Assembly: GCA_963577695.1 (NCBI GenBank)
Contig: CAUZAY010000001.1
Coordinates: 1-58,325, forward strand
Source: Vicinamibacteria bacterium
GTDB taxonomy: Bacteria > Acidobacteriota > Vicinamibacteria > Vicinamibacterales > UBA8438
DNA length: 58,325 nt
Reading direction: 5' to 3'
The notes below the pieces were generated by a model. It saw only the letters and a list, made by a program, of their open reading frames with translations. It did no database searches and was not told where the DNA came from. Shown here in pieces: positions 2,457 through 58,325 of the stretch. Each line of letters opens with the position of its first letter. Within the stretch, counting starts at the first letter, position 1. The translations under genes and the position numbers were made by a program.

Positions 2457-2562
2457 CCGCGCATTGTGTCCCGTGTCGCGACGGCGGAGCCAGCGGCACG
2501 GCTTTCCACATACAATCCCATCCGACCTGCAGGCACACTCCTGACGAGATCGGATCTGCCGT

Positions 2563-6557: not shown

Positions 6558-7889
6558 CTAGACACCCGACAAGAGGGGCAACTCCCCGGTGCTGTCGCCG
6601 AACGTCTCCACGTTGACGCCGAACTTGTCGAGGAGGCTCAACGACAGATTGGCCAGTGGGGTACCTTTCGGGTACACGAGGTGGCGATTCCCCGCCAGCC
6701 CATTCTCCGGTCCACCGATGACGACGACCGGCACACTGTAGTTGTTGTGGGTGTTGCCGTCGCTCATGCCCTTGCCGTAGAGGACGACCGTGCTGTCCAG
6801 CAGCGTCCCATCGGCCTCTGGAATCGACTGCAGTTTGTTCAAGTAGTACGCAAGGGTTTCGACGTGATACGTGTTCAGTTTGGAGAAGTCTTTCATCTTC
6901 TCCGGGTTGTTGCCGTGGTGCGACATGGAATGGTGCGCCTCCGGCAAACCAATCTCGTTGTAGGCACGATTGATGTTTTCGCGCGCCATCATGAAGGTCG
7001 TGACCCGGGTGACGTCCGCCTGGAACGTGAGGACCTGCAGGTCGAACATCAGCTCGGCGTACTCCCTGAACGTGTCCGGCACCCCGACCGGACGTTCCGG
7101 GAGATCGAAGTCGCGATTGGTCGACTCGGCCCGGGCGATGCGCTGTTCCACGTCGCGAATCGCGCCGAGATACTCGCCGAGCTTGGCCCGGTCCGGCCCG
7201 CCCAGCTTGTTCGACAGTGTCGCGATCTCCTGCGACAGGCCGTCAAGAATACTGCGGTCTTCCTGCACACGCACCGCGCGCTCTTCGGCGGTGTCCCCAC
7301 TGCCAAACAACCGCTCGAAGACGAAGCGCGGGTTCGTTTCCGCCGGCAGCGGCATCGTGGGGCTTTTCCACGCCATGGAGTTCATGTAGGCGCAGGCGTA
7401 GCCGTGGTCGCAGGCGCCGACGACGTCGTTGCGATCCACCGACACTTCCAACGACGACAGCTTCGAGTCACGGCAGATGCGCTCGGCGATCAGTTGATCG
7501 ATGGTGGTGCCGGCCTGCACATCCGCACCCTCGGTCTGCTTCGGATGCACCGAGCTCATGAACGCCGGAGCGGCGCGTGGGTGCTGGCCGCCGGAGTCGC
7601 CCTGGTCCGTCGCCGGGAAGTTGTCCAGGCCGGTGAAGACGAGCATCCGATCCCGGTAGGGCTCCAGCGGCGTCAGGGTCGGCGAGAGCTGGAACCGGAC
7701 CCCCTCGGTGGGCGGCGTCCAATCGAACATGTTGGCGCCATTCCCGACGTAGATCGCCGCGAACCGCGGCGTCCCCGGAGCCCGAGCCGACAGGGCCGGC
7801 ACCATCGCATCGAGGAACGGCAAGGCCAGCGTGGCGCCCATGCCGCGCAGGAACGTCCGTCGGGGTAACGCCATCTTGGTGATCACCAT
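6558..7889 (-). CDS. DUF1552 (HxxSHH) domain protein with Tat-like signal, paralogue 1
   Basis: MVITKMALPRRTFLRGMGATLALPFLDAM (twin-Arg signal) and EAHHSMSHHG (HxxSHH). About half of the residues are shared with 46528..47868. ATG 7889 is preferred over TTG 7895 by analogy with the paralogue (MIITK..). Confidence 0.85.
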   Translation of the reverse strand: MVITKMALPRRTFLRGMGATLALPFLDAMVPALSARAPGTPRFAAIYVGNGANMFDWTPPTEGVRFQLSPTLTPLEPYRDRMLVFTGLDNFPATDQGDSGGQHPRAAPAFMSSVHPKQTEGADVQAGTTIDQLIAERICRDSKLSSLEVSVDRNDVVGACDHGYACAYMNSMAWKSPTMPLPAETNPRFVFERLFGSGDTAEERAVRVQEDRSILDGLSQEIATLSNKLGGPDRAKLGEYLGAIRDVEQRIARAESTNRDFDLPERPVGVPDTFREYAELMFDLQVLTFQADVTRVTTFMMARENINRAYNEIGLPEAHHSMSHHGNNPEKMKDFSKLNTYHVETLAYYLNKLQSIPEADGTLLDSTVVLYGKGMSDGNTHNNYSVPVVVIGGPENGLAGNRHLVYPKGTPLANLSLSLLDKFGVNVETFGDSTGELPLLSGV

Positions 7890-7916
7890 GGACAACAGCC
7901 TCTCATGTTTCGCACG

Positions 7917-10361
7917 TCAGTTCGCGTGCTCTTGCGCCATCCGCATCTGAAACGGCGTGCTGGCGACAATGCCTTGTATGAGCGAGGCAAAGGCGTAGTT
8001 CTCGGCCGCGGCCGCGCGCTTGATCTGCCGAACCACGGGCGCATCCGTCGCCTCCAACCCTCTTCCCAACGCGTAGGTCAGCAGTCGGTCGGTCACCGTG
8101 GTCAAGAAGTCATCCGAGTGACTCAGCAACACCGCGCGAAGCTCGGCCGGGCCGGCGAACGTCGTGCCGTCGGGGAACTTGGCTGATGGGTCGATCGGCA
8201 CACCGGACGGATAGATCTCCCGCCATTCGCCGATCGCGTCGAAGTTTTCGAGCGCGAAACCGAGCTGGTCCATCTGCGCGTGACAACTCGCGCAGACGGG
8301 GTTGGCCCGGTGCGCCGCCATCTGCTCGCGGATCGGGAGCACCTTTCGCGGGTCTCTGTCCTCTTCGAGGTCCGGTACGTCAGGCGGCGGCGGCGGTGGC
8401 GGGGCGCCGAGAATGTTGTCCAGAATCCACTTGCCGCGGATGACCGGCGAGGTTCGATTCGCTCGCGAGGTGCCGGTGAGAATGGAACCCTGCCCGAGCA
8501 GCCCGCGGCGAACGCTGTCGGCCGGCAGCGATACGCGTCTGAACCGCGCTCCGCGCACGCCGGGAATCCCGTAGTGAGTCGCCAGCCGCTCGTTCAGGAA
8601 CGTGTAGTCCGCATCCAGCAGGTCGAGGACACTGCGGTTTTCGCGGATGATGCTGTCGAAGAACAACTGTGTCTCGCGCTCGAAGGCCGTCCGTAGTCCG
8701 TCGTCGAAATGGAACAGCAGCTCCGGGCTCGGCTGCAACGCGGCCACATTGCGGATGTGCAGCCACTGGCCGGCGAAGTTGTCGACCAGCGCCTGGGAAC
8801 GCGGGTCCGCCAGCATGCGTTGCACTTGCTGTTGCAGCACGTCAGGTTCGTGGAGCGTCTCCTTCACCGCCATGTCCACCAGTTCATCATCCGGGATGCT
8901 GCTCCAGAGGAAGAACGCGAGACGCGAGGCCAGTTCGAGATCGGAGATGCGATAGGGCGTATCGGGCGCGACCGACGCCGGCTGTGCCTCGAACCGGAAC
9001 AGGAAGTTGGGGCTGACCAGTATCCCTCGCACCGCCAGTTCGATGCCGGACTCGAACCCGCCGGCGCGCGCCCCGTCACGATACAAGGACATCGGAATCT
9101 CGAGATCCGCATCGGTCAACGGGCGCCGGTAGGCTCGACGTGCCAGCGTCGCAATGATGGTGTTCGCGCAGGCCGCGTCGTCGGCATCTGAGCCGGCCGG
9201 CGGCGTGCAGACGAGCAGTCGGCGACGGCTGGGCGAGTCGCCGACAGACGCGGCTCCGGCCGGTGGAGCAGTGATCGTCACGCTGGAGATCGCGGGCTCA
9301 CCGTTACCCGCGCGGTAGGGATCCCGACGCAGATCCGGGTCGAACAGATCCTCGACGTAGGCCGAGGTCTTGGCCGCGAAGTACACCTGCACCTGATACG
9401 CGCCAGCCTTGACCGGAACCTGGAATCGCAAGCTCTCCAGGATCGCCTCAATGCGATCGTCTCCGCGCAGCCCCTCCAGGGCGGGTCCCCCGACAATGCC
9501 GGTCCAGACCCGGACCCCGTCGAGACTCACGTCGAGCTGATGCGGCTCGGCCGTGACCCCCACGAATCCCCCGTCGACGCCCCCTTCTCTCGGCCGCATG
9601 TCGAAGCGGTAGTCCCCGTCGACCGGGAAGTAATAGCGAAACACGGTGCCACCCCGCGACCCGAACGGCAGGTCATCGCTGATACGGTCGCCCTGATCGC
9701 GATCGGTGGGCACCAAGATCGTCTCCGGCGGTGGCGACCCCCGTAGCCGTCCCAGTGCCATCTGACTGATCTTCGCGGCCGCGCTCAGATACCGCTCCGT
9801 CAGGGCCGACGACAACGTCAGCGCGTCCGCATTGTTGTCGAACCCGTACGCCGCGTTGTCCGCCGGCAGCAGAGACGTATCAACGTCCACCGCAAACAGG
9901 TCGCGCACAGCGTTGCGATACTCGGCGCGGTTCAGTCGATGCAGCGTGGGCCGGCCCGGGTTGGGATGCTCCAGCGCACCGCGGTCGAGCTGGGTCTCGA
10001 GCCACGTGGCCACGTCATTCGAGGAGGCTGCGTCCGGCCGCGGCCGTCCGGCCGGGGGCATCGCGCCCGTCCGCAGCTTGCGGACGACCTGTTCCCACAC
10101 GTCCGCACGCGCGGGCACCTGGGCCATATCCAGGGTGTCGAGCGCGAGCCCGCCGATCTGAGCCCGTTCGTTGTGACACGCGAAGCAGTACTGCCGCAAC
10201 ACGGCCCGAACCTCCGGCTCGGCCACGTCGGCGGGCTCCTGGGCCAGGCGACCGGGAGCCGGCGACGGGGTCGGACCTGCCGCGCCCATCTGCGCGTGAG
10301 CGAAGACGCCGGCAAGGATACAGACGAGGCCGATGACCCGCGCCGGTCGACGGGGCGTCAT
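7917..10361 (-). CDS. DUF1592-family multidomain haem c protein (DUF1587/1592/1595/1588/1585-type), paralogue 1
   Basis: Signal peptide, then CFACHNE near the N-terminus and CASCHAQMDQLGFALENFD near the C-terminus. Collinear with 47865..50282. The ATG at 10361 overlaps the ankyrin gene stop (ATGA, 10358..10361). Confidence 0.85.
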   Translation of the reverse strand: MTPRRPARVIGLVCILAGVFAHAQMGAAGPTPSPAPGRLAQEPADVAEPEVRAVLRQYCFACHNERAQIGGLALDTLDMAQVPARADVWEQVVRKLRTGAMPPAGRPRPDAASSNDVATWLETQLDRGALEHPNPGRPTLHRLNRAEYRNAVRDLFAVDVDTSLLPADNAAYGFDNNADALTLSSALTERYLSAAAKISQMALGRLRGSPPPETILVPTDRDQGDRISDDLPFGSRGGTVFRYYFPVDGDYRFDMRPREGGVDGGFVGVTAEPHQLDVSLDGVRVWTGIVGGPALEGLRGDDRIEAILESLRFQVPVKAGAYQVQVYFAAKTSAYVEDLFDPDLRRDPYRAGNGEPAISSVTITAPPAGAASVGDSPSRRRLLVCTPPAGSDADDAACANTIIATLARRAYRRPLTDADLEIPMSLYRDGARAGGFESGIELAVRGILVSPNFLFRFEAQPASVAPDTPYRISDLELASRLAFFLWSSIPDDELVDMAVKETLHEPDVLQQQVQRMLADPRSQALVDNFAGQWLHIRNVAALQPSPELLFHFDDGLRTAFERETQLFFDSIIRENRSVLDLLDADYTFLNERLATHYGIPGVRGARFRRVSLPADSVRRGLLGQGSILTGTSRANRTSPVIRGKWILDNILGAPPPPPPPDVPDLEEDRDPRKVLPIREQMAAHRANPVCASCHAQMDQLGFALENFDAIGEWREIYPSGVPIDPSAKFPDGTTFAGPAELRAVLLSHSDDFLTTVTDRLLTYALGRGLEATDAPVVRQIKRAAAAENYAFASLIQGIVASTPFQMRMAQEHAN

Positions 10362-11932
10362 TTCGCCAGGACCTCCTCGGGAATCGCGGCCGCGCACGGA
10401 GCCGGGCACGCGATTTCCTTGGCACCCAACGCCCGCAGCAGCACCGCGGTCTGCGGGTGCGCGGCGAACGAATTGCCGTACTCGACCCCGTCGGCAACCC
10501 GCAACGGTGTGCGTCCGTCTTTGGCGACAACGTCCAGCCGCGCACCCTGATCGAACAGATACTGCACCACGCTATTGGCGCCCCGATAGGCCGCCGCATG
10601 CATGGCGGTCTCTCCAACATCGCTCACAAAGTTGACGTCCGCTCCGTGCTCTTCCACGAGCATCCTGACCGCCTCGAGCACCTGGGCTTCGTTGGCACGG
10701 TCCTGGTTCGACGCCCAGGAAATACCGGCCGCCGCCATCAACGTGGTCGTGTTGTCCACGGTGTTGATCGTCGGGTCGGCTCCATGCTCGAGCAACACAC
10801 GCATCACCTCGACATCCGCGGCCTTCGCCGCGAGCATCAACGCGGTCGCGCCCGTCATGTGCCGGCGATACCGGGCGCCAGACCATCTTGGCTCCTCCTG
10901 CGTGTTCCGCCCGTTGACGTCGGCGCCGTGCGCCAGCAACGACTCGATCACGCGCAGCCGGTCGAGGTTCACGACGATGAACTGATCGCTGATGTGCCAG
11001 TTGGCCACATGCACCGCGGCCTGCAACGGTTTCCCGAAGATATTGCCCCTCGGCACCGTCTCGGAATCGCGCTCGCTGTAGCCGATTCTCCTAAACTCCA
11101 GCGGCATCGGCCGGGCCCGGACCCCCTGCACCGTCAGCCGAGTCGATCCCCCCTCGACGTTGGGATCCGCGCCTTCATCGAGCAGGAGATCCACGAGGTC
11201 TTCGTGTCCGTTGATCACCGCCATGAGCAACGAACTCGCGCCATCAGGACGCTGCTCGTTGACGTCGGCCCCGGCCGCAAGCAGGGCCCGAACGGCGGGG
11301 AGGCTCCCCTTCCGCACGGCAAACATGAACGGCGTCGCGCCGCTGTTGGAGTGCGCGCGGGTGTCCGCACCCTGATCGATCAGGGCTTCGACGACGGAGA
11401 CGTGCCCTTCGATCGCCGCCCACATGAGCGCGGATTGTCCGTTCCAGGTTTCTGCCGCGTTGATGTCGGCGCCAGCGCCCACCAGTGCGTGCACCGCATC
11501 CACGTGTCCGGAACGCGCCGCCAGCATGAGCGGCGTCTCGCCCGCATTCACCGCGTGCCGCGGATCGTTCGGATCAGCACCAGCGGATACCAGCTGCTCG
11601 ATGATCGCCGCGCTGCCGTTTTGCGACGCCAGACCGAGCGGCGTCACTCCATAGTTGTTCGACTGGTTCACGTCGGCCCCGGCGCCGATCAACAGCGCCG
11701 TCGTGTCCGCGTCGTTCACATACACGGCCCAATGCAAGGCGGTCGCGCCATCGCCCAGTGCCGCGTTGACATCGACGCGTGCCTCGATCAGCGACCGCAC
11801 GGCAGCCGTATCGCCCCGCCGCACCGCGTCGACCAGCGGCACGTCTGCCCCGGCGGCCCCGAGGCTGCTTCCCGCCAGGCCTAGACCGGCCACGATTACC
11901 GCCACCGCCGGTACACATCGCACTCGCATCAT
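10358..11932 (-). CDS. Secreted ankyrin-repeat protein, paralogue 1
   Basis: Signal peptide MMRVRCVPAVAVIVAGLGLAGSSLGAAGA, then many ANK units (GATALHWAV..D..LL..GADVN; ETPLMLAARSGHVDAVHALVGAGADIN, etc.). Collinear with 44845..46494. Confidence 0.85.
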   Translation of the reverse strand: MMRVRCVPAVAVIVAGLGLAGSSLGAAGADVPLVDAVRRGDTAAVRSLIEARVDVNAALGDGATALHWAVYVNDADTTALLIGAGADVNQSNNYGVTPLGLASQNGSAAIIEQLVSAGADPNDPRHAVNAGETPLMLAARSGHVDAVHALVGAGADINAAETWNGQSALMWAAIEGHVSVVEALIDQGADTRAHSNSGATPFMFAVRKGSLPAVRALLAAGADVNEQRPDGASSLLMAVINGHEDLVDLLLDEGADPNVEGGSTRLTVQGVRARPMPLEFRRIGYSERDSETVPRGNIFGKPLQAAVHVANWHISDQFIVVNLDRLRVIESLLAHGADVNGRNTQEEPRWSGARYRRHMTGATALMLAAKAADVEVMRVLLEHGADPTINTVDNTTTLMAAAGISWASNQDRANEAQVLEAVRMLVEEHGADVNFVSDVGETAMHAAAYRGANSVVQYLFDQGARLDVVAKDGRTPLRVADGVEYGNSFAAHPQTAVLLRALGAKEIACPAPCAAAIPEEVLAK

Positions 11933-11966
11933 TGACGTCCTGTAATGACTTCAAATCCTACTATGT

Positions 11967-17320: not shown

Positions 17321-17488
17321 AATTAGGACCCTGGTCGAAATAAAGTTGCCATCTTTGGCGCCGCGGCGCCTGGCCGGCCAGGCGCGAGGAGCGCGCATAC
17401 CGGGAGTATGTAAGCGACGAGCAACGCCGACGGGCGGGATGCCCCGGCGGCCAAAATGGTAACTTTATTTCGATCAGGGTCCTTAGTT
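17321..17488 (+). repeat. 168-nt element with ~40-nt AT-rich inverted-repeat arms, 38 nt upstream of the zf-PARP gene (candidate leader hairpin or MITE)
   Basis: Left arm AATTAGGACCCTGGTCGAAATAAAGTTGCCATCTTTGGCGCC; reverse complement of the right arm AACTAAGGACCCTGATCGAAATAAAGTTACCATTTTGGCCGCC. Both substitutions are G-U compatible in the plus-strand RNA. The centre holds a perfect 20-nt palindrome GCGCCTGGCCGGCCAGGCGC. The arms are strikingly AT-rich for this genome. Confidence 0.5.
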
Positions 17489-17525
17489 CCCACATCCAGA
17501 ATCGCGTCCAACGGAAGGAACAACC

Positions 17526-18140
17526 ATGGCGGAAGAAGACGCCCCGGCAGCCACGCCGGAACCGGAGCTCGCGCCGTACCTGCTCGAATCCGCTCGTTCG
17601 AGCCGTTCGAAGTGCCGTACCTGCAGACGAAAGATCGAAAAGGACACGCTACGGCTCGGGATTCTCCTCGAAGGCCCATTTGGCACGGGCTACCTGTGGC
17701 ATCACCTCACCTGCGCCGCGCGGCGTCGACTCGAGGACGTCGAAGCCGCGTACGAGCAACAGGCGTTCGCCGATGGACTGCAGGTGCCCCCATTGGCCGA
17801 ACTCCAGGCGCTCAAGGAGAAGGCGGAGCAAGCACGGGCGGAGCGTAAGGAGCTGCCATACGTGGAACGCGCCCCGAGCGGGCGCTCGAAATGCAAGAAC
17901 TGCGGCAAGGCCATCGACCAGGACGCGCTGCGCGTGGTGCTGGCGCGGGAGGTCTCCTTCGGCAACCAGGTCCGAGCGACCCCCATCAACGTCCACCCCG
18001 AATGTGTCCACGCGGAACTCGAATCGGAGGACTGCATGACCGAGGTCGACGGGTTCGAGGCCCAGCTGCGCCAGAACAGCACGCTCGAATCGTCGGTCGT
18101 TGATGAAGCGGTGGCGGCCATTGGCGTGCTCGAAGGCTAG
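17526..18140 (+). CDS. Tandem PARP-type zinc-finger (zf-PARP) protein
   Basis: There are two CxxC...HxxC units with PARP/Lig3 finger flanks. The first is ESARSSRSKCRTCRRKIEKDTLRLGILLEGPFGTGYLWHHLTC. The second is ERAPSGRSKCKNCGKAIDQDALRVVLAREVSF...INVHPEC followed by VDGFEAQL. 204 aa with no catalytic domain. GGAAGGAA SD. Confidence 0.8.
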   Translation: MAEEDAPAATPEPELAPYLLESARSSRSKCRTCRRKIEKDTLRLGILLEGPFGTGYLWHHLTCAARRRLEDVEAAYEQQAFADGLQVPPLAELQALKEKAEQARAERKELPYVERAPSGRSKCKNCGKAIDQDALRVVLAREVSFGNQVRATPINVHPECVHAELESEDCMTEVDGFEAQLRQNSTLESSVVDEAVAAIGVLEG

Positions 18141-35042: not shown

Positions 35043-36735
<1,693 letters not shown>

Positions 36736-44844: not shown

Positions 44845-46494
44845 CTACGGTTGTGTCTGGGCGACGAACTCGGCCGCCATCCGCTCGTCACGTTCCATCG
44901 CCGCGCGCACCTGGTCGGGTCGGGTCTGAAAGCAGTCGAGGCACACGGAGGGGTCGACGTGGTGGTCCTCAGGGTCGAGTCCGCGGGCCTGCATGAGCTC
45001 GCGCAGGCGGTCGGCGGTGTGGGTCTGCGCCTTGTAGAAATCTGAATAGCTGAGCCCGTTGGCCAGGGCGAGGGGGGTCCATCCCTCGACCGTACGTGGG
45101 TCGAGATCGGCGCCTTGCTCTACCAGATAGTCCACGAGGGCGTTGACGCCCCGGAACGCGACGCCGTGGAGCGCCGTCTCACCACGGTCGTTGACCGCGT
45201 TGACGTCGGTGCCGAGCTCGACGCACATCCGCACCGCCTCGAACACCTCCGGCTCCTGCCCGGGCAGTGATCCGCCGTCTTCACCGGGAATGAAGATGGC
45301 GATACCGGCCGCCACCATCAGCGGCGTGGTCCCGTCAGCGCTTGGCATGAGCGGGTCGGCACCCGCGGCCACCAGCACCCGCATCGCTTCCACATCGGTG
45401 TTCTTCGCGGCGAGGAAAAACGCGGTCGCGCCAAGGCGATTCAGCCGGCTCCGCTGGCCATCCTTCATCCCGTTCCGGCTCATGCGGGCATCGACGTCCA
45501 CCCCGCGCGCTATCAGCTTGTGGATGACATCGATGCTGTCGACCCGTCCGGTCGGAATCGGGCCGGCCTGGCCGCCACTCGGATTGGGCCGCCGGGTGCG
45601 CACGACCTGGTGCAGGGCGTTCCACCCGGCCCCGGCCAGCGTCGGGTCAGCGCCGCGGTCGAGCAGGTAGTCGGCCAGCTCCCAGTTGGCGTTCGCGGCG
45701 GCGACCACAAGCGCGCTCTGACCGTCGGACAACAGATCGTTGACGTCGGCCCCGGCGTCGAGCAGCACGCGTGTCGCATCGAGCTGACCAGCCCGGGCCG
45801 CGAACAACAACGCGGTGAACCCGGTGGCGCGTGGGCTCGAGAAATAGCTGCCGCCAGCCGATGGCTCCTGCCGGGGCGTCCGGGCACGTACGTCCGCACC
45901 ATGTTCGACCAGCACCTCGATGGCGGCCGCGTTGTTCCGGGCCGCCGCCCACATGAGCGCGGTCTGGCCTGACCCAGGGTCGGTGACGTTGGGATCGGCT
46001 CCCGCCGTCAACAACCGTCGGACCACGTCGGCCACGCCGGCGCGAGCCGCGGTCATCAACACCGTCTCACCACCCGGCAAGGCGGTGTGTGGGTCAGCGC
46101 CGGCATCCAGGAGACGACCGAGGACCGCGGCATTCCCGTTCGAGGCCGCGAGGCTGATCGGTCGGATGCCGTATCGGTTCGCCATCGCCACGTCAGCGCC
46201 ACGGGCGAGAAGCAACCTCACCAGCTCGTCGTGATCCTGGTGTACGGCCCAGTGCAACGCGGTCGCGCCGTCAGGCGTGGTGTGGTTGACGTCGGCGCCG
46301 CCCGAGAGGAGCGTGCCCACCGCCGTCAGGTCGCCGGTCTTCACGGCGGCGATCAGCGGCACATCGTCCGCCTTCGCCAAGGCTTCGGCGGACAGGTCCG
46401 CTGTGGGGACCAGGCCGAAGATGAGGGTCACGAAGACCGATAGGGTCGAGAGTCGCAATTCAGTCATCGGCGGCCACGGTTTTCTGGAACGCAC
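44845..46494 (-). CDS. Secreted ankyrin-repeat protein, paralogue 2
   Basis: Collinear with 10358..11932 (..DVPLIAAVKTGDLTAVGTLLSGGADVNHTTPDGATALHWAV..). The start is uncertain (GTG 46494 or ATG 46467). Confidence 0.85.
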   Translation of the reverse strand: MRSRKPWPPMTELRLSTLSVFVTLIFGLVPTADLSAEALAKADDVPLIAAVKTGDLTAVGTLLSGGADVNHTTPDGATALHWAVHQDHDELVRLLLARGADVAMANRYGIRPISLAASNGNAAVLGRLLDAGADPHTALPGGETVLMTAARAGVADVVRRLLTAGADPNVTDPGSGQTALMWAAARNNAAAIEVLVEHGADVRARTPRQEPSAGGSYFSSPRATGFTALLFAARAGQLDATRVLLDAGADVNDLLSDGQSALVVAAANANWELADYLLDRGADPTLAGAGWNALHQVVRTRRPNPSGGQAGPIPTGRVDSIDVIHKLIARGVDVDARMSRNGMKDGQRSRLNRLGATAFFLAAKNTDVEAMRVLVAAGADPLMPSADGTTPLMVAAGIAIFIPGEDGGSLPGQEPEVFEAVRMCVELGTDVNAVNDRGETALHGVAFRGVNALVDYLVEQGADLDPRTVEGWTPLALANGLSYSDFYKAQTHTADRLRELMQARGLDPEDHHVDPSVCLDCFQTRPDQVRAAMERDERMAAEFVAQTQP

Positions 46495-46527
46495 GGGCCA
46501 GTCCGCCGCAGCCTTGGCGAAGGCGGG

Positions 46528-47868
46528 CTACAAGCCGGCAAGCGTGCCGGTGCTGTCGGCGATCTGGTCGACCTGCACGTCGACTTTCTCGAGCACGCTC
46601 AGCCCGAGGTTCATGAACGGTGTGTGCAACGGATATTTCAAGTGGCGATTGCCGGCCAGACGTCCGGCGCCGCCACCGACGAGCGCGACCGGCAGGTCGA
46701 ACGGCGTGTGGTGGTCCCCGTCGCCCATCCCGCAGCCGTAGAGAAGCATGCTGTGGTCGAGCAAGGTGCCGTCGCCATCCGGCGTCGCTCGCATTTTCTC
46801 GACAAACCGCGCGAACAACGACAGGTGATAGACGTTCACCTTCGTGTACTGCTCGACGTTGTGCGGCTCCATCTGATGATGGGAAATCGTGTGATGCCCC
46901 TCCGGCACCCCGATGTCGGGATAGGTGCGGCCACTCTGCTCGCGGGCCATCTGGGTACAGCTCACCCGGGTGACGTCAGCCTGGTAGGCGAGCAGCAGCA
47001 GGTCGTAGAGCAGCTTCACGTGCTCGTCGTAAGTGTCAGGCACCCCAGACGGCTGCTCCAGTGACGGCAGTGGCGTGGCCGCGTTTGTCTGCTCGGCCCG
47101 CTGTATGCGGCGCTCGACCTCCCGCACGGTCTGCAGGTAGTCGTCGACCATGTGGCGGTCGCCGGCGCCCAGTCGATGTCTGAGATCGCCGAGTCGACCG
47201 GTCACCGCATCCAGGATGCTGCGGTCCGTGCGCATGTCGGCCAATCGCGCCGAGACGCTGCCCCCGTCCCCGAACATGCGCTGGAAGACCACCCGCGGAT
47301 CCCGCTCGTGCGGCAACGGGGTCGTGTCGTCCCGCCAGGAGGTCGAGTTCAGATACGCGCAGGCGTAACCGTTCTCGCAGTTCCCGACCAGAAAGTTAGA
47401 GTCCGCCGTCAGCTCAAGCGACCGCAGCGAGGTCTCGGCTCCCAGCCGATCGGCGGCGTACTGATCCACGGTCTTGCCGGCCCGCAGATCGGCCCCTTCC
47501 GTCTTATACGGGAGCACGCCGTTCAGCCAACCCGCGTGCGCACGACTGTGCACCCCGCCGCCTTCGTTGGGGCTGACCACACCGCGATTGCTCAGACCGC
47601 TCACGACCGTGAGTTGATCGCGAAATGGGGCCAACGGCTCGAGGATCGGCGTCATCCCGAAGTTCGATCCGCCGTCGCCGGCCGGATGAAAGTTCGGCAG
47701 GAACATGCCGTTCGGCCCGTAGAAGAAGCCGAGACGGCGCACCGGCGGGGCAGCGGTTTGCGCGCGCGCCAGCGCCGGGACCATCGCGTCGAGAAAAGGC
47801 ACGGCCAGCGTCGCGCCGAGCCCGCGAAGCACGGTGCGCCGAGACAGCGAGGTCTTGGTAATGATCAT
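46528..47868 (-). CDS. DUF1552 (HxxSHH) domain protein with Tat-like signal, paralogue 2
   Basis: MIITKTSLSRRTVLRGLGATLAVPFLDAM and EGHHTISHH. The ATG overlaps the upstream stop (ATGA, 47865..47868). Confidence 0.85.
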   Translation of the reverse strand: MIITKTSLSRRTVLRGLGATLAVPFLDAMVPALARAQTAAPPVRRLGFFYGPNGMFLPNFHPAGDGGSNFGMTPILEPLAPFRDQLTVVSGLSNRGVVSPNEGGGVHSRAHAGWLNGVLPYKTEGADLRAGKTVDQYAADRLGAETSLRSLELTADSNFLVGNCENGYACAYLNSTSWRDDTTPLPHERDPRVVFQRMFGDGGSVSARLADMRTDRSILDAVTGRLGDLRHRLGAGDRHMVDDYLQTVREVERRIQRAEQTNAATPLPSLEQPSGVPDTYDEHVKLLYDLLLLAYQADVTRVSCTQMAREQSGRTYPDIGVPEGHHTISHHQMEPHNVEQYTKVNVYHLSLFARFVEKMRATPDGDGTLLDHSMLLYGCGMGDGDHHTPFDLPVALVGGGAGRLAGNRHLKYPLHTPFMNLGLSVLEKVDVQVDQIADSTGTLAGL

Positions 47869-50282
47869 GATTCCGCAGCCCTCATCAAGAACGGCTCGCT
47901 CCGCACGATGCCGAGAATGATCGACTGGAACGGATAGCCGTCAGCCTCCGTCTCGCGCAGAATTCGGCGAATAGCCGGCATGTCGTAATACTCGATACCC
48001 CGCCCCAACGCATAGGTCAGGAGCTTTTCCGTCACGGTCATGACGAACCGCTCCGGATGCGCGGTGAGCGCCTCGCGCAGCCCGGCGGCGCCGTCGAACG
48101 CCGTGCCGTCGGGTAGCACCCCTGAGGCGTCGATCTGATTGTACGACTCATCGACGTCTCGCCACCGGCCGATCGCGTCGAAATGTTCCAGCGCAAACCC
48201 AGCCGGGTCGATCATCGCGTGACACGCCGCGCACGCCGGATTGTCCCGATGCGCGCGCATCCGCTCGCGCATGGTCGCCGTCTTCGCCTGCGTCTTGCGG
48301 TCAGCCAGCGCCGGCACGTTCGGGGGCGGGTCTGGTGGCGGGGTGCCCAGCACGTTGTTCAGGATCCACTTGCCTCGCAACACCGGCGACGTTCGGATCG
48401 CGTGCGAGGTCAGGGTGAGGATACTCCCGTGTCCCAGAATGCCCCCGCGCGGGCTGTCGGGGGGCAACGCCACGCGACGAAAGTGGCTGTCCACCACGTT
48501 CGGGATGCCGTAGTGGGTGGCCAATCGTTCGTTGAGATAGGTGTAGTCGGCGTCCAGCAGATCCAGCACGCTGCGGTCCTCGCGCACGACGCTGTCGAAG
48601 AACAGTTCCGTCTCGCGGATAAAACTCTGCCGCAGGTTTTCGTCGAACGCCAGCGAGTACGGGTCGCCGGGACGCACCGACGGGTCGGCCAGGTTGCGGA
48701 ACTGGAGCCACTGGCCGGCGAAGTTCTCGGTCAGCGCCTGTGATTTCGGATCGGCGATCATCCGCCGCACCTGGCGTTCGAGCTCAGCCGGCTCGCTCAG
48801 GCGTCCATCCTCGGCGACGGTCAGGAGCGCGTCGTCGGGAATGCTGCTCCAGAGGAAGAACGACAGCCGCGAGGCCAGCTCGAGATCGCCGACCCGATAC
48901 CCGCCAGACGGCGGCGCGTCCACCGGATCGGTCTCGAGACGGAACAGGAAGTCAGGGCTGGCCAGCAGATAGCGGAGCGCCATCTCGATGCCAGTCTCGA
49001 AGTCGTCGCCGTCGTCGCGCGCCGCGTCGTAGAACCCGAGCAGTACACGCACGTCGTCGTCGGTGGCCGGTCGGCGGTAGGCGCGGCGGGCCAGCGCGCC
49101 GAGAATCGCTGCGGCGCACCCGGCCTCGTCGGACGACGCCGACGGGTCGCATACGAACAGCTGACGCCGGCTGGGCGTGTCGCCGGACCCGCGAGCGTCA
49201 TACGGACCGGCGATGGTCACGCTGCGCACCGTCGGAATCGCGCCGGCGACGCCACCGCGACGCGGGTTCTGGAACGGCTCACGCACCTGCTCGACCAGCG
49301 CCGCCGAGTTGCGGTAGAAGGTGACACCGATATCGTGCGGTCCGGCCGACACCGGCACTCGCACCGTCAGACCGCCACCGGTGAGACCGGGATGCGGTTC
49401 CGTTCCCGGACCGAGCGTCACCAGCTCGACCTGGTCTCCATCCACGGTGACCTCGAAGCGGTGTGGCACGCGGCCGCTGCGAGTGCGCGCCAACTCGACC
49501 TGAATCTCGTACTCGGCATCCTGGGAAAACAGATGGCTGACCACCGTGCCGCCGCGCGTACCGAACCCCAACATCTCGACCCGGTCGTGCTGCTGCATGT
49601 CGGTCGCGATGCGATAGGTATCGGACGTCACGGCGGGCGGTGGACTCCCCACCGCCAACCGGCTCACGGTCTTGGCGGCGGCCAGATACCGCTCGAGCAG
49701 CGACTGGGACAACCGCAGCGCGTCACCAATATTGTCGAACCCACGGCTCGAGTCGTCGGCCGGGAGCAGATCCGCCACGGGGACGTCGAGTGCCAGCAGG
49801 TCACGAACCGCGTTGCGATACTCGACACGATTGAGCCGGTGCAGAGACGCCGTCCGACCGGGGTTCGGACGCGACGCCGCGGCGTTGTCGAGTTCCGTTT
49901 CCAGCCAGGTCAGCAACGCGCGTTCCTCCGCCGCGTCGGGCCGAGGGCGCCCGGCCGGCGGCATCATGCCACCCCGCAGCTTCCGTACCACCTGTTCCCA
50001 GGATTCGGCGTTGTCGCCGACCGCGTCCAGATCGAGGGTGTCGAGTGTCAGTCCGATGGCGCGCAACTGACTGACCAGGGGCGACGGCGCGGTCCCCGCG
50101 CCCTGCACGATCTGTTCGCTGTGGCAGGTGACGCAGTAGCGGTCGAGCAGCGCACGCGGCTCGTCTGCGGCGGCGTCCGACCGCTGGCCAGCAGCGACGG
50201 GGTCCGCCGGGACCATGCCCGTCATGAGCAGCGTCGACACGAACCCGATGATGGCGAATCGCTTGTGAAGCACAGTTGTCAC
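47865..50282 (-). CDS. DUF1592-family multidomain haem c protein, paralogue 2
   Basis: CVTCHSEQ near the N-terminus and CAACHAMIDPAGFALEHFD near the C-terminus. The GTG start overlaps the PQQ dehydrogenase stop (GTGA, 50279..50282). Confidence 0.85.
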   Translation of the reverse strand: MTTVLHKRFAIIGFVSTLLMTGMVPADPVAAGQRSDAAADEPRALLDRYCVTCHSEQIVQGAGTAPSPLVSQLRAIGLTLDTLDLDAVGDNAESWEQVVRKLRGGMMPPAGRPRPDAAEERALLTWLETELDNAAASRPNPGRTASLHRLNRVEYRNAVRDLLALDVPVADLLPADDSSRGFDNIGDALRLSQSLLERYLAAAKTVSRLAVGSPPPAVTSDTYRIATDMQQHDRVEMLGFGTRGGTVVSHLFSQDAEYEIQVELARTRSGRVPHRFEVTVDGDQVELVTLGPGTEPHPGLTGGGLTVRVPVSAGPHDIGVTFYRNSAALVEQVREPFQNPRRGGVAGAIPTVRSVTIAGPYDARGSGDTPSRRQLFVCDPSASSDEAGCAAAILGALARRAYRRPATDDDVRVLLGFYDAARDDGDDFETGIEMALRYLLASPDFLFRLETDPVDAPPSGGYRVGDLELASRLSFFLWSSIPDDALLTVAEDGRLSEPAELERQVRRMIADPKSQALTENFAGQWLQFRNLADPSVRPGDPYSLAFDENLRQSFIRETELFFDSVVREDRSVLDLLDADYTYLNERLATHYGIPNVVDSHFRRVALPPDSPRGGILGHGSILTLTSHAIRTSPVLRGKWILNNVLGTPPPDPPPNVPALADRKTQAKTATMRERMRAHRDNPACAACHAMIDPAGFALEHFDAIGRWRDVDESYNQIDASGVLPDGTAFDGAAGLREALTAHPERFVMTVTEKLLTYALGRGIEYYDMPAIRRILRETEADGYPFQSIILGIVRSEPFLMRAAES

Positions 50283-52336
50283 TGGGGTAGCGCGAGCGCG
50301 ATGAGTCCGGGGGCGCCCTGGCCGCCAACGGTCAGCGCAATGTATTGCACGCCATCGAGCATGTAGGTCATGGGGGTGCCGATGGCCCCACCGCCCAGGT
50401 CCACAGACCCCACCGGCTGCCCGGTCGTCTTGTCATAGGCGACCAGCCGGGGACCACCATCGGTCCCACCGGCCGTCAGCGCGTGAATGAGCAGGGTCTT
50501 GGTCAACACCGGACCGCTCCGACTGTCGTCGCCCCCTAGCGGCGGGAGGTCGAGACCGCGGAGCATCGGGTGATTGCGAATACGGTCGCCGTTGCCGAGC
50601 GGTGTCATCCAGACATGCTCGCCGGTGTTCATGTCGATGGCGGTCATCCTCGAATACGGCGGTTTCCAAAGCGGCAGCCCTTGGGGCATCTGTGGGCGGC
50701 GATCAGGGTTGCCCGCCTCGATGAACGAGGCACCCCCGCGGCTCAGGATGTAATCGAGCGTCGAGGGCTCACCGGCGTCCGGACGCCGGAACCGCATGAC
50801 CGAATGCACGTTGCGCGACGGCACGTAGAGAATGCCGGTCTCGGGATCGACCGCGGCGCCGGACCAGTTGGCCCCACCGCCGGCGCTGGGTCGAAAGATG
50901 GTGCCCTGGAGCGACAGCGGTGTGAACAGCGGGCCCAGCCGGAACCCCTCGACCGCCTCCACCGCCATTTGCCGAATCTCAGGCGTGAAATCGACCAGAT
51001 CGTCGAGGGTGGCCCCTTGCGTGTCGAACGGCGCCGGGCGGGTGGGGAACGGCTGGGTCGGTGACAGGACCTCCCCCTCCAGGTCGGTCTCGGTGTTCAC
51101 CTCGCGTTCGTCGATCGGCCAGATTGGCTCGCCGGTCACCCGGTCGAACGCGTAGACGAACCCTTGTTTGGTGACCTGCGCGACCGCCTTGATGTCACGC
51201 CCGTCGACGGTGATATCGAGCAGGTTCGGCGCCGTCGGGTTGTCGTAGTCCCAGACCCCGTGATGCACCATCTGGAAGTGCCACACGCGCTGTCCGGTTT
51301 GCAGGTCGACCGCCACCAGGCTTTCGGCAAACAAGTTATCACCCGGTCGGTGTCCGCCATAGTAGTCGGATGTCGGCGTGCTTGTCGGCAGATAGACATA
51401 CCCGAGTTCCGGGTCCACGCTCATGTTCGACCAGCTGTTGGCGTTCCCCGAATAGCGCCACGACTCGTTCAGCCAGGTCTCGCTGCCGAACTCGTCGGCG
51501 CTCTGCGGAATGTTGTGGAAATCCCACCGGTGCCGGCCCGTGCGAGCGTCGTAGGCGCGCGCGAACCCCGGGGGCATCTCCTTGGTGATGCTGAAGTCGT
51601 TGATCGACGACCCCACGATGATGGTGTCACCGACCACCAACGGCGCCGACTGTGACGAGAGCGGCAGCAGGTTCAAGTTGTCGCGCTGGCCGCGCGTGGC
51701 GCGTGGCAGGTTCTCGGTCAGGTCGACGCGCCCGGCGTCGCCGAACTCGGCCGCCGGCAACCCGGTCTTCGCATCGACCGACACCAGGAACCCGTCGCCG
51801 GTGCCCCACACGACCCTGGCCTCGTCGCCGTTCTCCCAGTAGCCCACGCCTCGGTGCGCCCACGGCGCCGGGGCCGGCGTGCCGGCTTCGTAGATGCGCG
51901 GATCGTGCACCCACAGCGTCGCTCCCGTCCTCGCGTCGATGGCCGCGGCCTGATAGAGCGGGGTACTCAGATACAGCACGCCGTCGACCATCAGCGGCGT
52001 CGCCACCAACCGACCGGCCCCCGGTCGTGTCACCCAGCGGTCTGGCTCTTCCTCCTCGAGCAGGTCGAACAGCGTCCCGGCCGGTACGACCGACGCGCCA
52101 CGCTCTCCTTCGACGATCAAGTGCGTGTCGGCGGTACGCCATCGCCAGACCACCTCGAGGTCCCCGAAGTTGTCAGCGGTAATCTGGTCGAGCGGGGAGT
52201 ATTTCGAACTGTAAGTGTCGGCCGCATAGGTGCGCCACTCGCCGTTCCGCGCCCCCGGCTGGGCGGTCACCGGCGCCGGCAGACACGCCAGACCCAGGAA
52301 TCCGAGGATCGGTATGGTCAAGCAGCGACTGGACAT
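50279..52336 (-). CDS. PQQ-dependent dehydrogenase (soluble, glucose/quinate-type propeller)
   Basis: Signal peptide MSSRCLTIPILGFLGLACLPAPVTAQ from ATG 52336, then GEWRTYAADTYSSKYSPLDQI and repeated W-motif blades (..GATLWVHD.., ..GQRVWHFQMVHHGVWDYD.., ..GEPIWP.., ..GEHVW..). Confidence 0.8.
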   Translation of the reverse strand: MSSRCLTIPILGFLGLACLPAPVTAQPGARNGEWRTYAADTYSSKYSPLDQITADNFGDLEVVWRWRTADTHLIVEGERGASVVPAGTLFDLLEEEEPDRWVTRPGAGRLVATPLMVDGVLYLSTPLYQAAAIDARTGATLWVHDPRIYEAGTPAPAPWAHRGVGYWENGDEARVVWGTGDGFLVSVDAKTGLPAAEFGDAGRVDLTENLPRATRGQRDNLNLLPLSSQSAPLVVGDTIIVGSSINDFSITKEMPPGFARAYDARTGRHRWDFHNIPQSADEFGSETWLNESWRYSGNANSWSNMSVDPELGYVYLPTSTPTSDYYGGHRPGDNLFAESLVAVDLQTGQRVWHFQMVHHGVWDYDNPTAPNLLDITVDGRDIKAVAQVTKQGFVYAFDRVTGEPIWPIDEREVNTETDLEGEVLSPTQPFPTRPAPFDTQGATLDDLVDFTPEIRQMAVEAVEGFRLGPLFTPLSLQGTIFRPSAGGGANWSGAAVDPETGILYVPSRNVHSVMRFRRPDAGEPSTLDYILSRGGASFIEAGNPDRRPQMPQGLPLWKPPYSRMTAIDMNTGEHVWMTPLGNGDRIRNHPMLRGLDLPPLGGDDSRSGPVLTKTLLIHALTAGGTDGGPRLVAYDKTTGQPVGSVDLGGGAIGTPMTYMLDGVQYIALTVGGQGAPGLIALALPQ

Positions 52337-57001: not shown

Positions 57002-58325
57002 GTGCGTCAAGTTTCAACGACCAGCGAGCGCGGCGCGACGACACATGCGGCGTGTCTGATGGTTCTGCTCACCATCGGGCTCTGTCTCGGCCCATCGACG
57101 ACCGAGGCACAGCCAGGCGCTACAGGTGGCCCCGGCGCGCTCGTGGGACGGTTCGAGCGGAACGCCCCGTCTCTGGGTGACCGGCTGCCAAATCTGCCGG
57201 TCTACGACCGGGAGGGTCAGCAGCACCGTCTCACGACGCTGCTGCGTGGTCGCTACACGGTGCTCGTACTCGGCTGTCTCACTTGACCGCCATTCCTCGC
57301 CAACGTCTCCCGGGTGGAGACGATCGAACGCGACTACACGCCACAGGGTGTCCAGTTCTATTACCTGTACAAACAGCTCGCTCATCCAGAGCTCGACCAC
57401 TACGTCGACCCCTACACGCTCGAAGAACGGCTCATGCACGTGGCACAGGCTGAGCGACAGCTCGGGTCGCGTATTCCGTGGATCGCGGATGCGATGACCA
57501 ACGAGTTGAAACATGCCCTGGGTGACATGCCCAACTCGGAATTCATCATCGACCCGGACGGACGCGTAGTGAACCGCCGAGCCTGGAGCGACCCTGAGGC
57601 GCTCCGCACCGACCTCGAGCGGCTCATCGGACCGGTGGCGGAGCCGACCCGTGTGTCCGACCTCGACCTGCCGTCCACGCCGCCAGTGGCCACCGTGGCC
57701 AAGGGCATCGTGCCACGTCTGACACCACCCGGGCGCATGAGCACCCTCACGGTTCGCCCCGACCTGGACGGTACGGAGCTGCCGTTCTACACCAAGCTCC
57801 GGGCCGACGTCGACACCGAATTTCTACGCACTGGCGCCGGCACACTGTTGCTCGGGTTTCACATCGATCCGCTGTATCACATGCATTGGAACAATCTGGC
57901 GCCCCCGTTGACCTGGGCGGTGACGGCGCCGGACGGGGTGCGCGTCACGCCGTCGTCGGCCACGTTCGCCACCATCGAGGAGCCGGCAGACGCCGATCCG
58001 CGTGAGTTCCTCGTCGACCTCGCCGCCGACGACATGACCGCGTCGTTCGACCTGAGCGTCACCTACTACGCGTGTGACGATGCCAACACCTTCTGCATCC
58101 CGGTGACCCAGGGCTACGCGGTCAGCCTGGGGGTGGACCCGGACGCCGGCCGGGTGTTTGGCGCCGGACGTGGAGGGGGTCGGTTTGGAGGGCGCGGTGG
58201 GCCGGGCGGGATGGTCGAGCGCGTCAATCGAGTCAGAGGCTGGGACACGAACGGCGACGGTCTGGTGGCCCGGAGCGAAGCGCCGGAACCGATGCGAGAC
58301 GTGTTTGACCGGATGGACGAAAACG
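57002..58325 (+). CDS. Candidate selenoprotein: secreted iodothyronine-deiodinase-like thioredoxin-fold domain (CxxU) fused to a DsbD-alpha-like domain and an EF-hand-like motif. It has an in-frame TGA at 57284..57286 and its 3' end lies beyond the window.
   Basis: The track ORF 57002..57286 ends ..RGRYTVLVLGCLT-TGA. I translated the same frame codon by codon and it stays open for all remaining 1039 nt (PPFLANVSRVETIERDYTPQGVQFYYLYKQLAHPELDHY...DAMTNELKHALGDMPNSEFIIDPDGRVVNRRAWSDPEALRTDLERLIG...). This matches the deiodinase pattern FGSxT-U-PxF...IYIxEAHxxD...P.R.YII..G.I. The downstream part has HIDPLYHMHWNN..YYACDDANTFCIPV and DTNGDGLVARSE. Confidence 0.65.
57304..57322 (+). promoter_or_regulatory. 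SECIS-like hairpin 17 nt downstream of the in-frame UGA
   Basis: CGTCTCC (57304..57310) / loop CGGGT / GGAGACG (57316..57322), a perfect 7-bp stem. The apical loop starts 24 nt after the UGA and has G at its second position. Confidence 0.5.

Follow-up and report, generated by a model that had tools for sequence, protein, structure and literature searches.

At the 3′ end of a 58,325-nucleotide (nt) stretch of DNA from a Vicinamibacteria bacterium (GenBank assembly GCA_963577695.1, contig CAUZAY010000001.1; the whole stretch is called the window below), a reading frame that starts with a GTG at 57002 encounters an in-frame TGA as its codon 95 and then runs open to 58324, giving 441 codons in the window, 346 of them 3′ of the TGA. 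The frame specifies a putative signal peptide, a thioredoxin-fold domain with a CxxU motif at the TGA, a beta-sandwich domain with a conserved Cys pair, a Gly/Arg-rich linker and a first EF-hand loop, and the TGA is followed by a hairpin of the bacterial selenocysteine insertion sequence (SECIS) type (Table 1). Here, we argue from sequence comparison, RNA covariation and structure prediction that this TGA is very probably a selenocysteine (Sec) codon in a secreted redox protein. We put the probability that the window carries the 5′ four-fifths of a genuine selenoprotein gene at about 0.85.

The first-pass annotation of the window had described an open reading frame (ORF) beginning at 57002 and interrupted by the TGA, with the same frame open afterwards, and had proposed that the residues on either side form one continuous domain with a Cys three residues upstream of the TGA. 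Both statements stand: the residues flanking the TGA read ...VLVLGCLT-[TGA]-PPFLANVSRVETIERDY..., and GCLT-U-P is invariant in the homologous loci described below. The 3′ end that the window lacks is supplied by two near-identical metagenome contigs (L081 and L082) and by the identical downstream protein P0001, with which the joined translation, the UGA being read through, comes to 531 amino acids (aa), the window holding the first 441. The GTG start is assumed, and an ATG at 57059 is an alternative. Orthologues have typical signal peptides ending in ...AQ, and residues 1–28 of the AlphaFold model of a Cys-containing homologue have a predicted local distance difference test score (pLDDT) below 50.

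Table 1. Features of the predicted selenoprotein gene at the 3′ end of the window (Prx, peroxiredoxin)
Feature	Coordinates	Strand	Remarks
5′ 441 codons of a predicted 531-codon selenoprotein gene	57002..58325	+	Last 90 codons (further EF-hands) lie 3′ of the window
Predicted signal peptide, residues 1–36	57002..57109	+	h-region ACLMVLLTIGLCLG, likely cleavage between TEA and QP; read from the sequence by eye
Predicted thioredoxin-fold redox domain (deiodinase / TlpA-ResA / Prx-like), residues ~48–213	57143..57640	+	Pfam, PDB profile, Foldseek
CxxU redox motif: Cys92 (TGT 57275-57277), Leu, Thr, probable Sec95	57275..57286	+	GCLT-U-P invariant in loci and in alignment A4
UGA very probably read as Sec, codon 95	57284..57286	+	TGA in 84/85 loci, TCA in one; Cys in 41 read-through relatives
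Bacterial SECIS-type hairpin	57304..57322	+	Stem 57304-57310 / 57316-57322, loop 57311-57315 (CGGGU), invariant G 57312
Invariant Ala-His-Pro (His128)	57380..57388	+	Corresponds to AHP in the IYIEEAHP block of deiodinases; invariant in A1 and A4
Putative DsbD-alpha-like beta-sandwich, residues ~215–383	57644..58150	+	AlphaFold2 pLDDT 92
Cys pair C-x6-C: Cys358, Cys365	58073-58075, 58094-58096	+	Invariant in every alignment
Gly/Arg-rich linker	58151..58240	+	Read from the sequence; equivalent segment of the homologue model has pLDDT <50
First EF-hand loop (DTNGDGLVARSE)	58244..58279	+	Next loop opens at 58316 (DEN...) and is incomplete in the window

Querying with the joined translation, U being written as C, retrieved 906 relatives; nearly all of them cover only ~76% of the query, as they begin just 3′ of the TGA column. 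P0001, which is 100% identical, starts at Val105, and the IMG calls for this gene are a 427-aa protein and a separate 75-aa stub upstream. A word-indexed search with the N-terminal domain returned only post-UGA fragments, and the Cys-containing forms were found by an exhaustive HMMER search with one of them, P0071, which gave 4154 matches, 181 of them below 1e-30. Of 319 retrieved proteins with a match to the redox-domain profile, 259 lack the U column because their calls are truncated and start after it, as would be expected if gene callers stop at the UGA. Sixty read-through domains were present among the retrieved proteins, and 41 of these are CxxC cluster representatives. Cys therefore stands at the UGA column in these 41 and in the full-length homologues P0071 (GCLTCPAF) and P0098 (GCLTCPIF), which is the alignment check that the first-pass annotation had proposed for its selenocysteine assignment.

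At the DNA level we compared 85 loci, namely the best 80 of 295 relatives found by scanning one genome per GTDB species, four metagenome contigs from four different JGI samples (L081–L084, chosen because they carry P0001) and the window itself. All but one of the 85 loci carry TGA at precisely this position, within an invariant GCLT-[TGA]-PPF, and the protein is conserved in frame on both sides, with GCLT before the TGA and PPF...RDY...LAHP after it. The loci span at least seven phyla and include Acidobacteriota (Vicinamibacteria, Thermoanaerobaculia and Terriglobia/Bryobacterales), Planctomycetota, Verrucomicrobiota, Gemmatimonadales, Gammaproteobacteria, Latescibacterota and Krumholzibacteriia; complete genomes with the gene include OZ252227.1, OZ240205.1, OY761158.1 and CP170459.1. 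Together with the conservation of protein on both sides and the aligned Cys, this supports the earlier proposal that the UGA encodes Sec. A sequencing error at the TGA is effectively excluded, as the same TGA is present in all four independent metagenome contigs. Elsewhere in the window TGA serves as an ordinary stop, for instance at the end of a DUF1592-family gene (7917-7919, minus strand), and a window-wide scan for TGA codons with coding signal on both sides left only 57284 as credible. Two further places where ORFs with high GC content at third codon positions abut in frame (7917 and 46528, both minus strand) were considered as additional selenoproteins and rejected, as they represent a DUF1592/DUF1552 gene junction and a TAG.

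Among the 85 loci, the gene of P0078 (L047:10139-10201) has the sole sense codon at the Sec column, TCA (Ser), one base away from TGA, and its SECIS hairpin is still perfect; this is either a recent Sec-to-Ser change in which the RNA element has not yet been lost, or a base-call error. L017 (~10200-10246) has an extra in-frame stop upstream of the Sec codon (CHGL*RDGK) and L049 (~10136-10230) has one just before the AHP motif (YYI*KPLAHP); both are probably pseudogenes or assembly errors.

The hairpin CGUCUCC/CGGGU/GGAGACG has seven base pairs and is the centroid structure of the segment, with its stem starting 17 nt after the UGA. The prediction program bSECISearch reportedly takes the apical loop to lie 16–37 nt after the UGA, the same figure as in the first-pass annotation, which also gives a G in the first two loop positions as a requirement of bacterial SECIS predictors; here the loop follows the UGA by 24 nt, with a G at +29. 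In an ungapped alignment of 78 distinct 63-nt segments, each starting at the UGA, a hairpin is found at positions 21–39 in all 78, with a loop of 3–5 nt. Standard pairs fill 88.5% of the cells when the two arms are in register, versus 33–51% when the 3′ partner is slid by 1–3 columns, and none of 500 shuffles reached the observed covariation score. The closing pair 21–39 occurs as CG (48), GC (9), UA (6) and AU (2), changing through synonymous third positions of Asn/Lys and Thr codons, and pairs 23–37 and 27–33 show one compensatory change each, which makes three covarying pairs. The loop G29, corresponding to G57312, is invariant (78/78) although the residue it helps to encode varies between Arg, Ser and Gly. 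Constraint at the RNA level is also visible in codon choice: third-codon positions 24, 27, 33 and 36 of the stem have an entropy of 0–0.29 bits versus a mean of 1.52 outside the stem, and the Glu codon in the stem is GAG in 78/78, whereas over the following 300 codons of the same genes GAG accounts for just 58% of the Glu codons. The hairpin noticed in the first-pass annotation thus recurs at the same offset in all sequences with covariation and an invariant loop G and, judged from this alignment, is a bacterial SECIS element.

The domain interrupted by the TGA matches the Pfam T4_deiodinase profile (PF00837) with 28.2 bits, a little above the cut-off of 27 (the domain by itself reaches 30.9), and AhpC-TSA and Redoxin fall just below their cut-offs in the window's protein. 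Among 30 diverse family members, Redoxin matches 29, T4_deiodinase 29 and AhpC-TSA 28, the best E-values belonging to AhpC-TSA and Redoxin and not to T4_deiodinase. When a family profile is compared with PDB sequences, mouse Dio3 (4TR3) comes first (1.2e-6), aligned through TCPPF and AHP, and proteins of the ResA/TlpA types follow. Both active-site blocks, T-U-P-P-F and then (I/V)Y-x-x-x-A-H-P, are invariant in the family and align directly with Dio3. Two positions of importance in deiodinases differ, each invariantly: Cys92 replaces the Ser three residues before Sec, and Leu126 the second Glu of EEAHP. The paper on the Dio3 structure reportedly discusses roles for this Ser and for the acidic residues of EEAHP. 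In the AlphaFold model of the Cys homologue (mean pLDDT 86), the best Foldseek match of the whole chain is the C-terminal thioredoxin-plus-beta-sandwich part of Mycobacterium tuberculosis DipZ, a reductase of the DsbD/CcdA family (2HYX, 5CYY; E = 5.6e-11). The redox domain by itself matches Dio2 (9H48; template-modeling (TM) score 0.76, root-mean-square deviation (rmsd) 2.3 Å) and ResA (TM ~0.8), and also Dio3 and peroxiredoxins. By profile and model, then, the redox domain is a thioredoxin fold whose active site most resembles the iodothyronine deiodinases, and it does not sit cleanly within PF00837. The deiodinase likeness claimed from the sequence at first pass is real, given the PF00837 match and the first rank of Dio3, yet borderline, since Redoxin and AhpC-TSA match equally and the bacterial NCBIfam model NF038285, 'deiodinase family protein', scores 54.3 bits against a cut-off of 250, over profile positions 174–323 of 347.

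Membership in NF038285 was rejected on this score, assignment to the peroxiredoxins was rejected on motif and score, and none of the selenoprotein-specific NCBIfam models matched the window's protein. Among the relatives, a redox-dead branch carries DxxD, DxxN or ExxD where the others have CxxU/CxxC, and consists of proteins of 680–830 aa with an N-terminal extension of ~400 residues (P0255, P0263, P0271, P0276, P0284, P0294, P0307, P0309, P0314 and P0331). P0186 (808 aa) contains two tandem CxxC copies of the redox domain.

The second domain is predicted with confidence to be a beta-sandwich (pLDDT 92), and sequence and model weakly suggest that this immunoglobulin (Ig)-like sandwich resembles the alpha domain of DsbD. 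The Pfam family DsbD_N (PF11412) matches 11 of 26 family members at E < 0.1, the best at 6.6e-6, and a Foldseek search with this domain places the DsbD-alpha structures 1JPE, 1L6P, 1JZD, 1VRS, 3PFU and 5NHI among the top matches and with the highest identities (15–20%). Cys358 and Cys365 align with the redox pair of a sequence that we take to be E. coli DsbD-alpha (BLASTP E = 7e-5). In the same presumed reference, the segment WHEDEFY, which we take to be the cap-loop that shields the Cys pair, aligns with an invariant FH(I/L)DPLY of the family, an alignment that is not significant (E = 4.4).

The EF-hands seen in the first-pass annotation are confirmed by four Pfam profiles that exceed their cut-offs on full-length P0001: EF-hand_6 (45.0; cut-off 25), EF-hand_5 (45.2; 25.9), EF-hand_1 (39.9; 25.4) and EF-hand_7 (38.9; 30). 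Family members have between 0 and 6 loops, and their position also varies. The block is N-terminal in L032, L033, L051, L053, L065 and L069, where Sec is at residue 260–277, and absent in ~20 loci; in P0098 a C-terminal esterase/lipase domain takes its place.

How might such a protein be made and function? In bacteria, the SECIS brings SelB with its bound Sec-tRNA(Sec) to a ribosome that has paused at a UGA, and by this established pathway SelB would bind the hairpin and insert Sec at UGA 57284. The product, if exported, could act as a periplasmic thiol/selenol-disulfide oxidoreductase with Cys92 and Sec95 as the catalytic centre, cycling between a selenolate/thiol and a selenenylsulfide. DsbD-alpha serves CcmG, DsbC or periplasmic peroxiredoxins; the Cys pair of the DsbD-alpha-like domain might analogously provide a tethered electron relay to a DsbD/CcdA/ScsB-type reductase in the membrane, whose gene would lie elsewhere. 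The EF-hands would form an accessory calcium-dependent module, accessory because their number and position vary between members. Export is suggested by the signal-peptide-like N-terminus, and we consider it jointly with the periplasmic role, at about even odds. The complete proposal, an exported oxidoreductase with a Cys-pair relay and accessory EF-hands, likewise seems to us about evenly poised between right and wrong. Of the two functions put forward in the first-pass annotation, thiol-redox chemistry fits the CxxU pair better, and periplasmic dehalogenation less well.

Several observations weigh against parts of this interpretation. As a fold, the hairpin is unremarkable: in this DNA of 66% GC, the 62-nt segment has a z-score of −0.11 relative to dinucleotide shuffles, 83 of 200 of which fold at least as well, and the case therefore rests on the comparative evidence. 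Even within the alignment, 42 of the 78 segments have a C.A mismatch at pair 25–35, where Pro instead of Ser is encoded, and Rfam gave no relevant match, either over the whole window at gathering thresholds or permissively over 57200-57420. For the second domain, DsbD_N has a cut-off of 25 bits, of which the window's protein reaches 19.6 and the domain by itself 22.8, the Foldseek matches to DsbD-alpha are weak (E ≥ 3.9e-3, TM 0.32–0.57) with other Ig-like folds scoring similarly, and a sequence profile of the domain retrieved no solved DsbD-alpha from the PDB. The first-pass proposal of a DsbD-alpha-like domain is weakly supported by the Cys pair, the matches in other members and the structural search, against the sub-threshold profile score and weak E-values; the Cys358/Cys365 pair could instead be a structural disulfide.

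The genomic surroundings provide no help either: selA, selB, selD and tRNA-Sec are found neither within the 58-kb window nor in the fetched loci (tRNA scans of the window and 60 loci; Pfam annotation of ~32 window ORFs), the window scan yielding no tRNA at all. DsbD and CcdA are absent from the ~32 annotated ORFs, and all-against-all clustering of the neighbours of 80 loci revealed no conserved neighbour and hence no linked DsbD/CcdA partner for the proposed function. The most recurrent neighbor clusters, present at 4–9 loci, comprise kinases, sulfatases, TPR, SDR and PQQ proteins, and recur only because these families are abundant. Sec machinery in the source genome is thus assumed. Complete selA/selB/selD sets are known in Planctomycetes, including a Rhodopirellula (PMC4807772), and selenoproteins have been reported in Acidobacteria (PMC1794560).

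A different use of the same active site would be that of a periplasmic selenol peroxidase, similar to peroxiredoxins or glutathione peroxidases, in which Sec95 is oxidized by peroxide to a selenenic acid that Cys92 resolves and the DsbD-alpha-like domain recycles. The AhpC-TSA and Redoxin matches to 28–29 of the 30 members, with best E-values of 1.4e-10 and 2.6e-9, speak for it, as do 1-Cys and Bcp peroxiredoxins among the Foldseek matches; cell-envelope peroxiredoxins reduced via DsbD/ScsB-type systems are known, and a peroxiredoxin-like mechanism has reportedly been proposed for mammalian Dio3. However, the peroxiredoxin signature P-x3-T-x2-C is absent, since position −3 is an invariant Cys instead of Thr and position −7 is hydrophobic instead of Pro, and both profiles stay below their cut-offs in the window's protein. 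We consider a peroxidase unlikely, if worth keeping in mind.

Less probable still is a deiodinase-type reductive dehalogenase acting on halogenated aromatic compounds in the periplasm. The T-U-P-P-F and A-H-P blocks correspond to those of deiodinases, Dio3 is the best PDB profile match, no single-domain structural alignment is longer than those with Dio2 and Dio3 (175–177 columns), PF00837 is just above its cut-off, and many members come from marine metagenomes. Against this, the invariant Cys in place of the deiodinase Ser creates a classical CxxU/CxxC pair, the second Glu of IEEAHP is invariantly Leu, and the NF038285 score is far from its cut-off; no halogen-related gene is linked among the neighbors of the 80 loci, and the existence of CxxC relatives, like the fusion to a DsbD-alpha-like domain, is more in keeping with disulfide exchange. 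A bolder view, which we regard as similarly improbable, would see an uncatalogued selenoprotein family, overwhelmingly in the Sec form, whose domains combine into a self-contained periplasmic redox machine. In it, a deiodinase-type Sec site would draw electrons through a DsbD-alpha-like relay of its own, under calcium gating by the EF-hands, and would dehalogenate an environmental substrate in the manner of deiodinases or reduce it in some other Sec-dependent way. If true, no deiodinase homologue known from bacteria before it would have had its electron supply defined.

That the TGA is a real stop, yielding a 94-aa secreted stub and a 427-aa EF-hand protein from a GTG at Val105, or that the gene is a pseudogene, is barely credible. 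Public pipelines do annotate the locus as two proteins and the window holds no Sec machinery, but termination here would break a thioredoxin fold within the motif of its active site, the sequences before and after the TGA are each conserved across the 85 loci with frame and register kept, and the Cys homologues are continuous; a pseudogene would retain neither the TGA in 84 of 85 lineages nor a covarying hairpin. Reading of the UGA as a standard amino acid, through a variant code or generic read-through, has nothing specific in its favor and is negligible, given that TGA ends other genes of the window and is flanked by coding signal nowhere else in it, that the loci span many standard-code phyla, that the aligned residue in relatives is Cys and not Trp or Gly, and that the conserved hairpin with its invariant loop G is a Sec-specific signal. 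Frame and column conservation, the Cys homologues and the conserved hairpin therefore effectively exclude a real stop, a pseudogene and a variant code.

Reading the gene as a selenoprotein gene has consequences for annotation. In all the public calls examined for TGA-bearing members, the protein is truncated or split at the UGA and, if it bears a name, is labelled 'EF-hand domain-containing protein' or 'hypothetical', and the redox domain and signal peptide are therefore lost from the annotation. A widespread, systematically mis-annotated selenoprotein family with a new domain architecture is well supported by these data. Nearly all of the family is in the Sec form, and much of it comes from Acidobacteriota and Planctomycetota, which do not feature prominently in the selenoprotein literature as far as searched. 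It may offer a tractable handle on the role of bacterial deiodinase-like proteins, as the DsbD-alpha-like fusion predicts an electron source and the natural CxxC, Ser and DxxD variants represent ready-made controls.

Adjoining the selenoprotein gene is a divergent pair of 2Fe-2S and molybdopterin dehydrogenase genes. Farther away, the window contains two paralogous three-gene sets (6561-11950 and 44848-50432, both minus strand), each encoding an ankyrin-repeat protein, a DUF1592/PSD-PSCyt cytochrome-like protein and a DUF1552 (HXXSHH) protein, with a gene order that differs between the sets. An ORF at 17487-18137 (plus strand) encodes a pair of PARP-type zinc fingers (zf-PARP, 80 bits); this domain, which senses DNA nicks, is mostly eukaryotic, and its presence in a bacterium is unexpected. 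Of note only for the dehalogenation reading are genes for a tryptophan-halogenase-like flavoenzyme (930-2594, minus strand) and for a haem peroxidase (35044-36732, plus strand), 20–55 kb from the selenoprotein gene and with no evidence of linkage to it.

How does this protein relate to known selenoproteins and redox systems? Bacterial deiodinase-like selenoproteins have been known since the Sargasso Sea metagenome (2005; PMC1088965), and reviews from 2022 and 2026 (PMC9312934, PMC13188914) list a deiodinase-like family under PF00837 with a UxxC motif. The window's protein shares with this family a Sec-encoding UGA with a bacterial SECIS, a PF00837 match, Cys homologues and a presumed redox function. 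In contrast to it, the motif here is CxxU, none of the three residues that follow Sec being a Cys, and the chain further includes a predicted signal peptide, a DsbD-alpha-like domain and EF-hands. Its identity with the catalogued family (representatives MFL2763324.1 and MBO99264.1), from which the protein is set apart by the published description only, is unlikely. The combination of a PF00837-like CxxU domain with DsbD_N and EF-hands is in none of the 119 catalogued families of the 2026 review (PMC13188914), and the earlier remark that this architecture is absent from characterized deiodinase homologues is consistent with the literature as far as searched. Individual members of the present family may be among the selenoprotein candidates, 'hypothetical' or AhpC/TSA, given in Table S9 of a paper on a planctomycete genome.

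Animal SELENON offers an analogy only, in that an EF-hand calcium sensor is combined with a Sec redox centre in an oxidizing compartment of extracytoplasmic type (PMC7474598); no homology was detected between the two, and SELENON is eukaryotic, with another fold and motif and a SECIS in the 3′ untranslated region. Comparable in design are DsbD, DipZ and ScsB and the clients CcmG, ResA and TlpA, where a thioredoxin-fold domain of the CxxC type is likewise paired with an Ig-like domain bearing a Cys pair. Unlike DsbD, DipZ and ScsB, the window's protein has no membrane (beta) domain, in the protein itself or nearby, has Sec in place of the second Cys, and places the thioredoxin domain before the Ig-like one; its Cys pair is spaced C-x6-C versus C-x5-C in DsbD-alpha.

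Finally, the protein shares with the deiodinases Dio1–3 (4TR3, 9H48) a thioredoxin/Prx-like fold with Sec in T-U-P-P-F at the start of the first helix and A-H-P ~30 residues later, and the homologue model superimposes on them with Foldseek TM scores of 0.71–0.76 and rmsd of 2.3–3.0 Å at a sequence identity of only 18–20%. It differs from them in having Cys and not Ser at −3, Leu for the second Glu of IEEAHP, a predicted signal peptide instead of a membrane anchor, and two extra domains.

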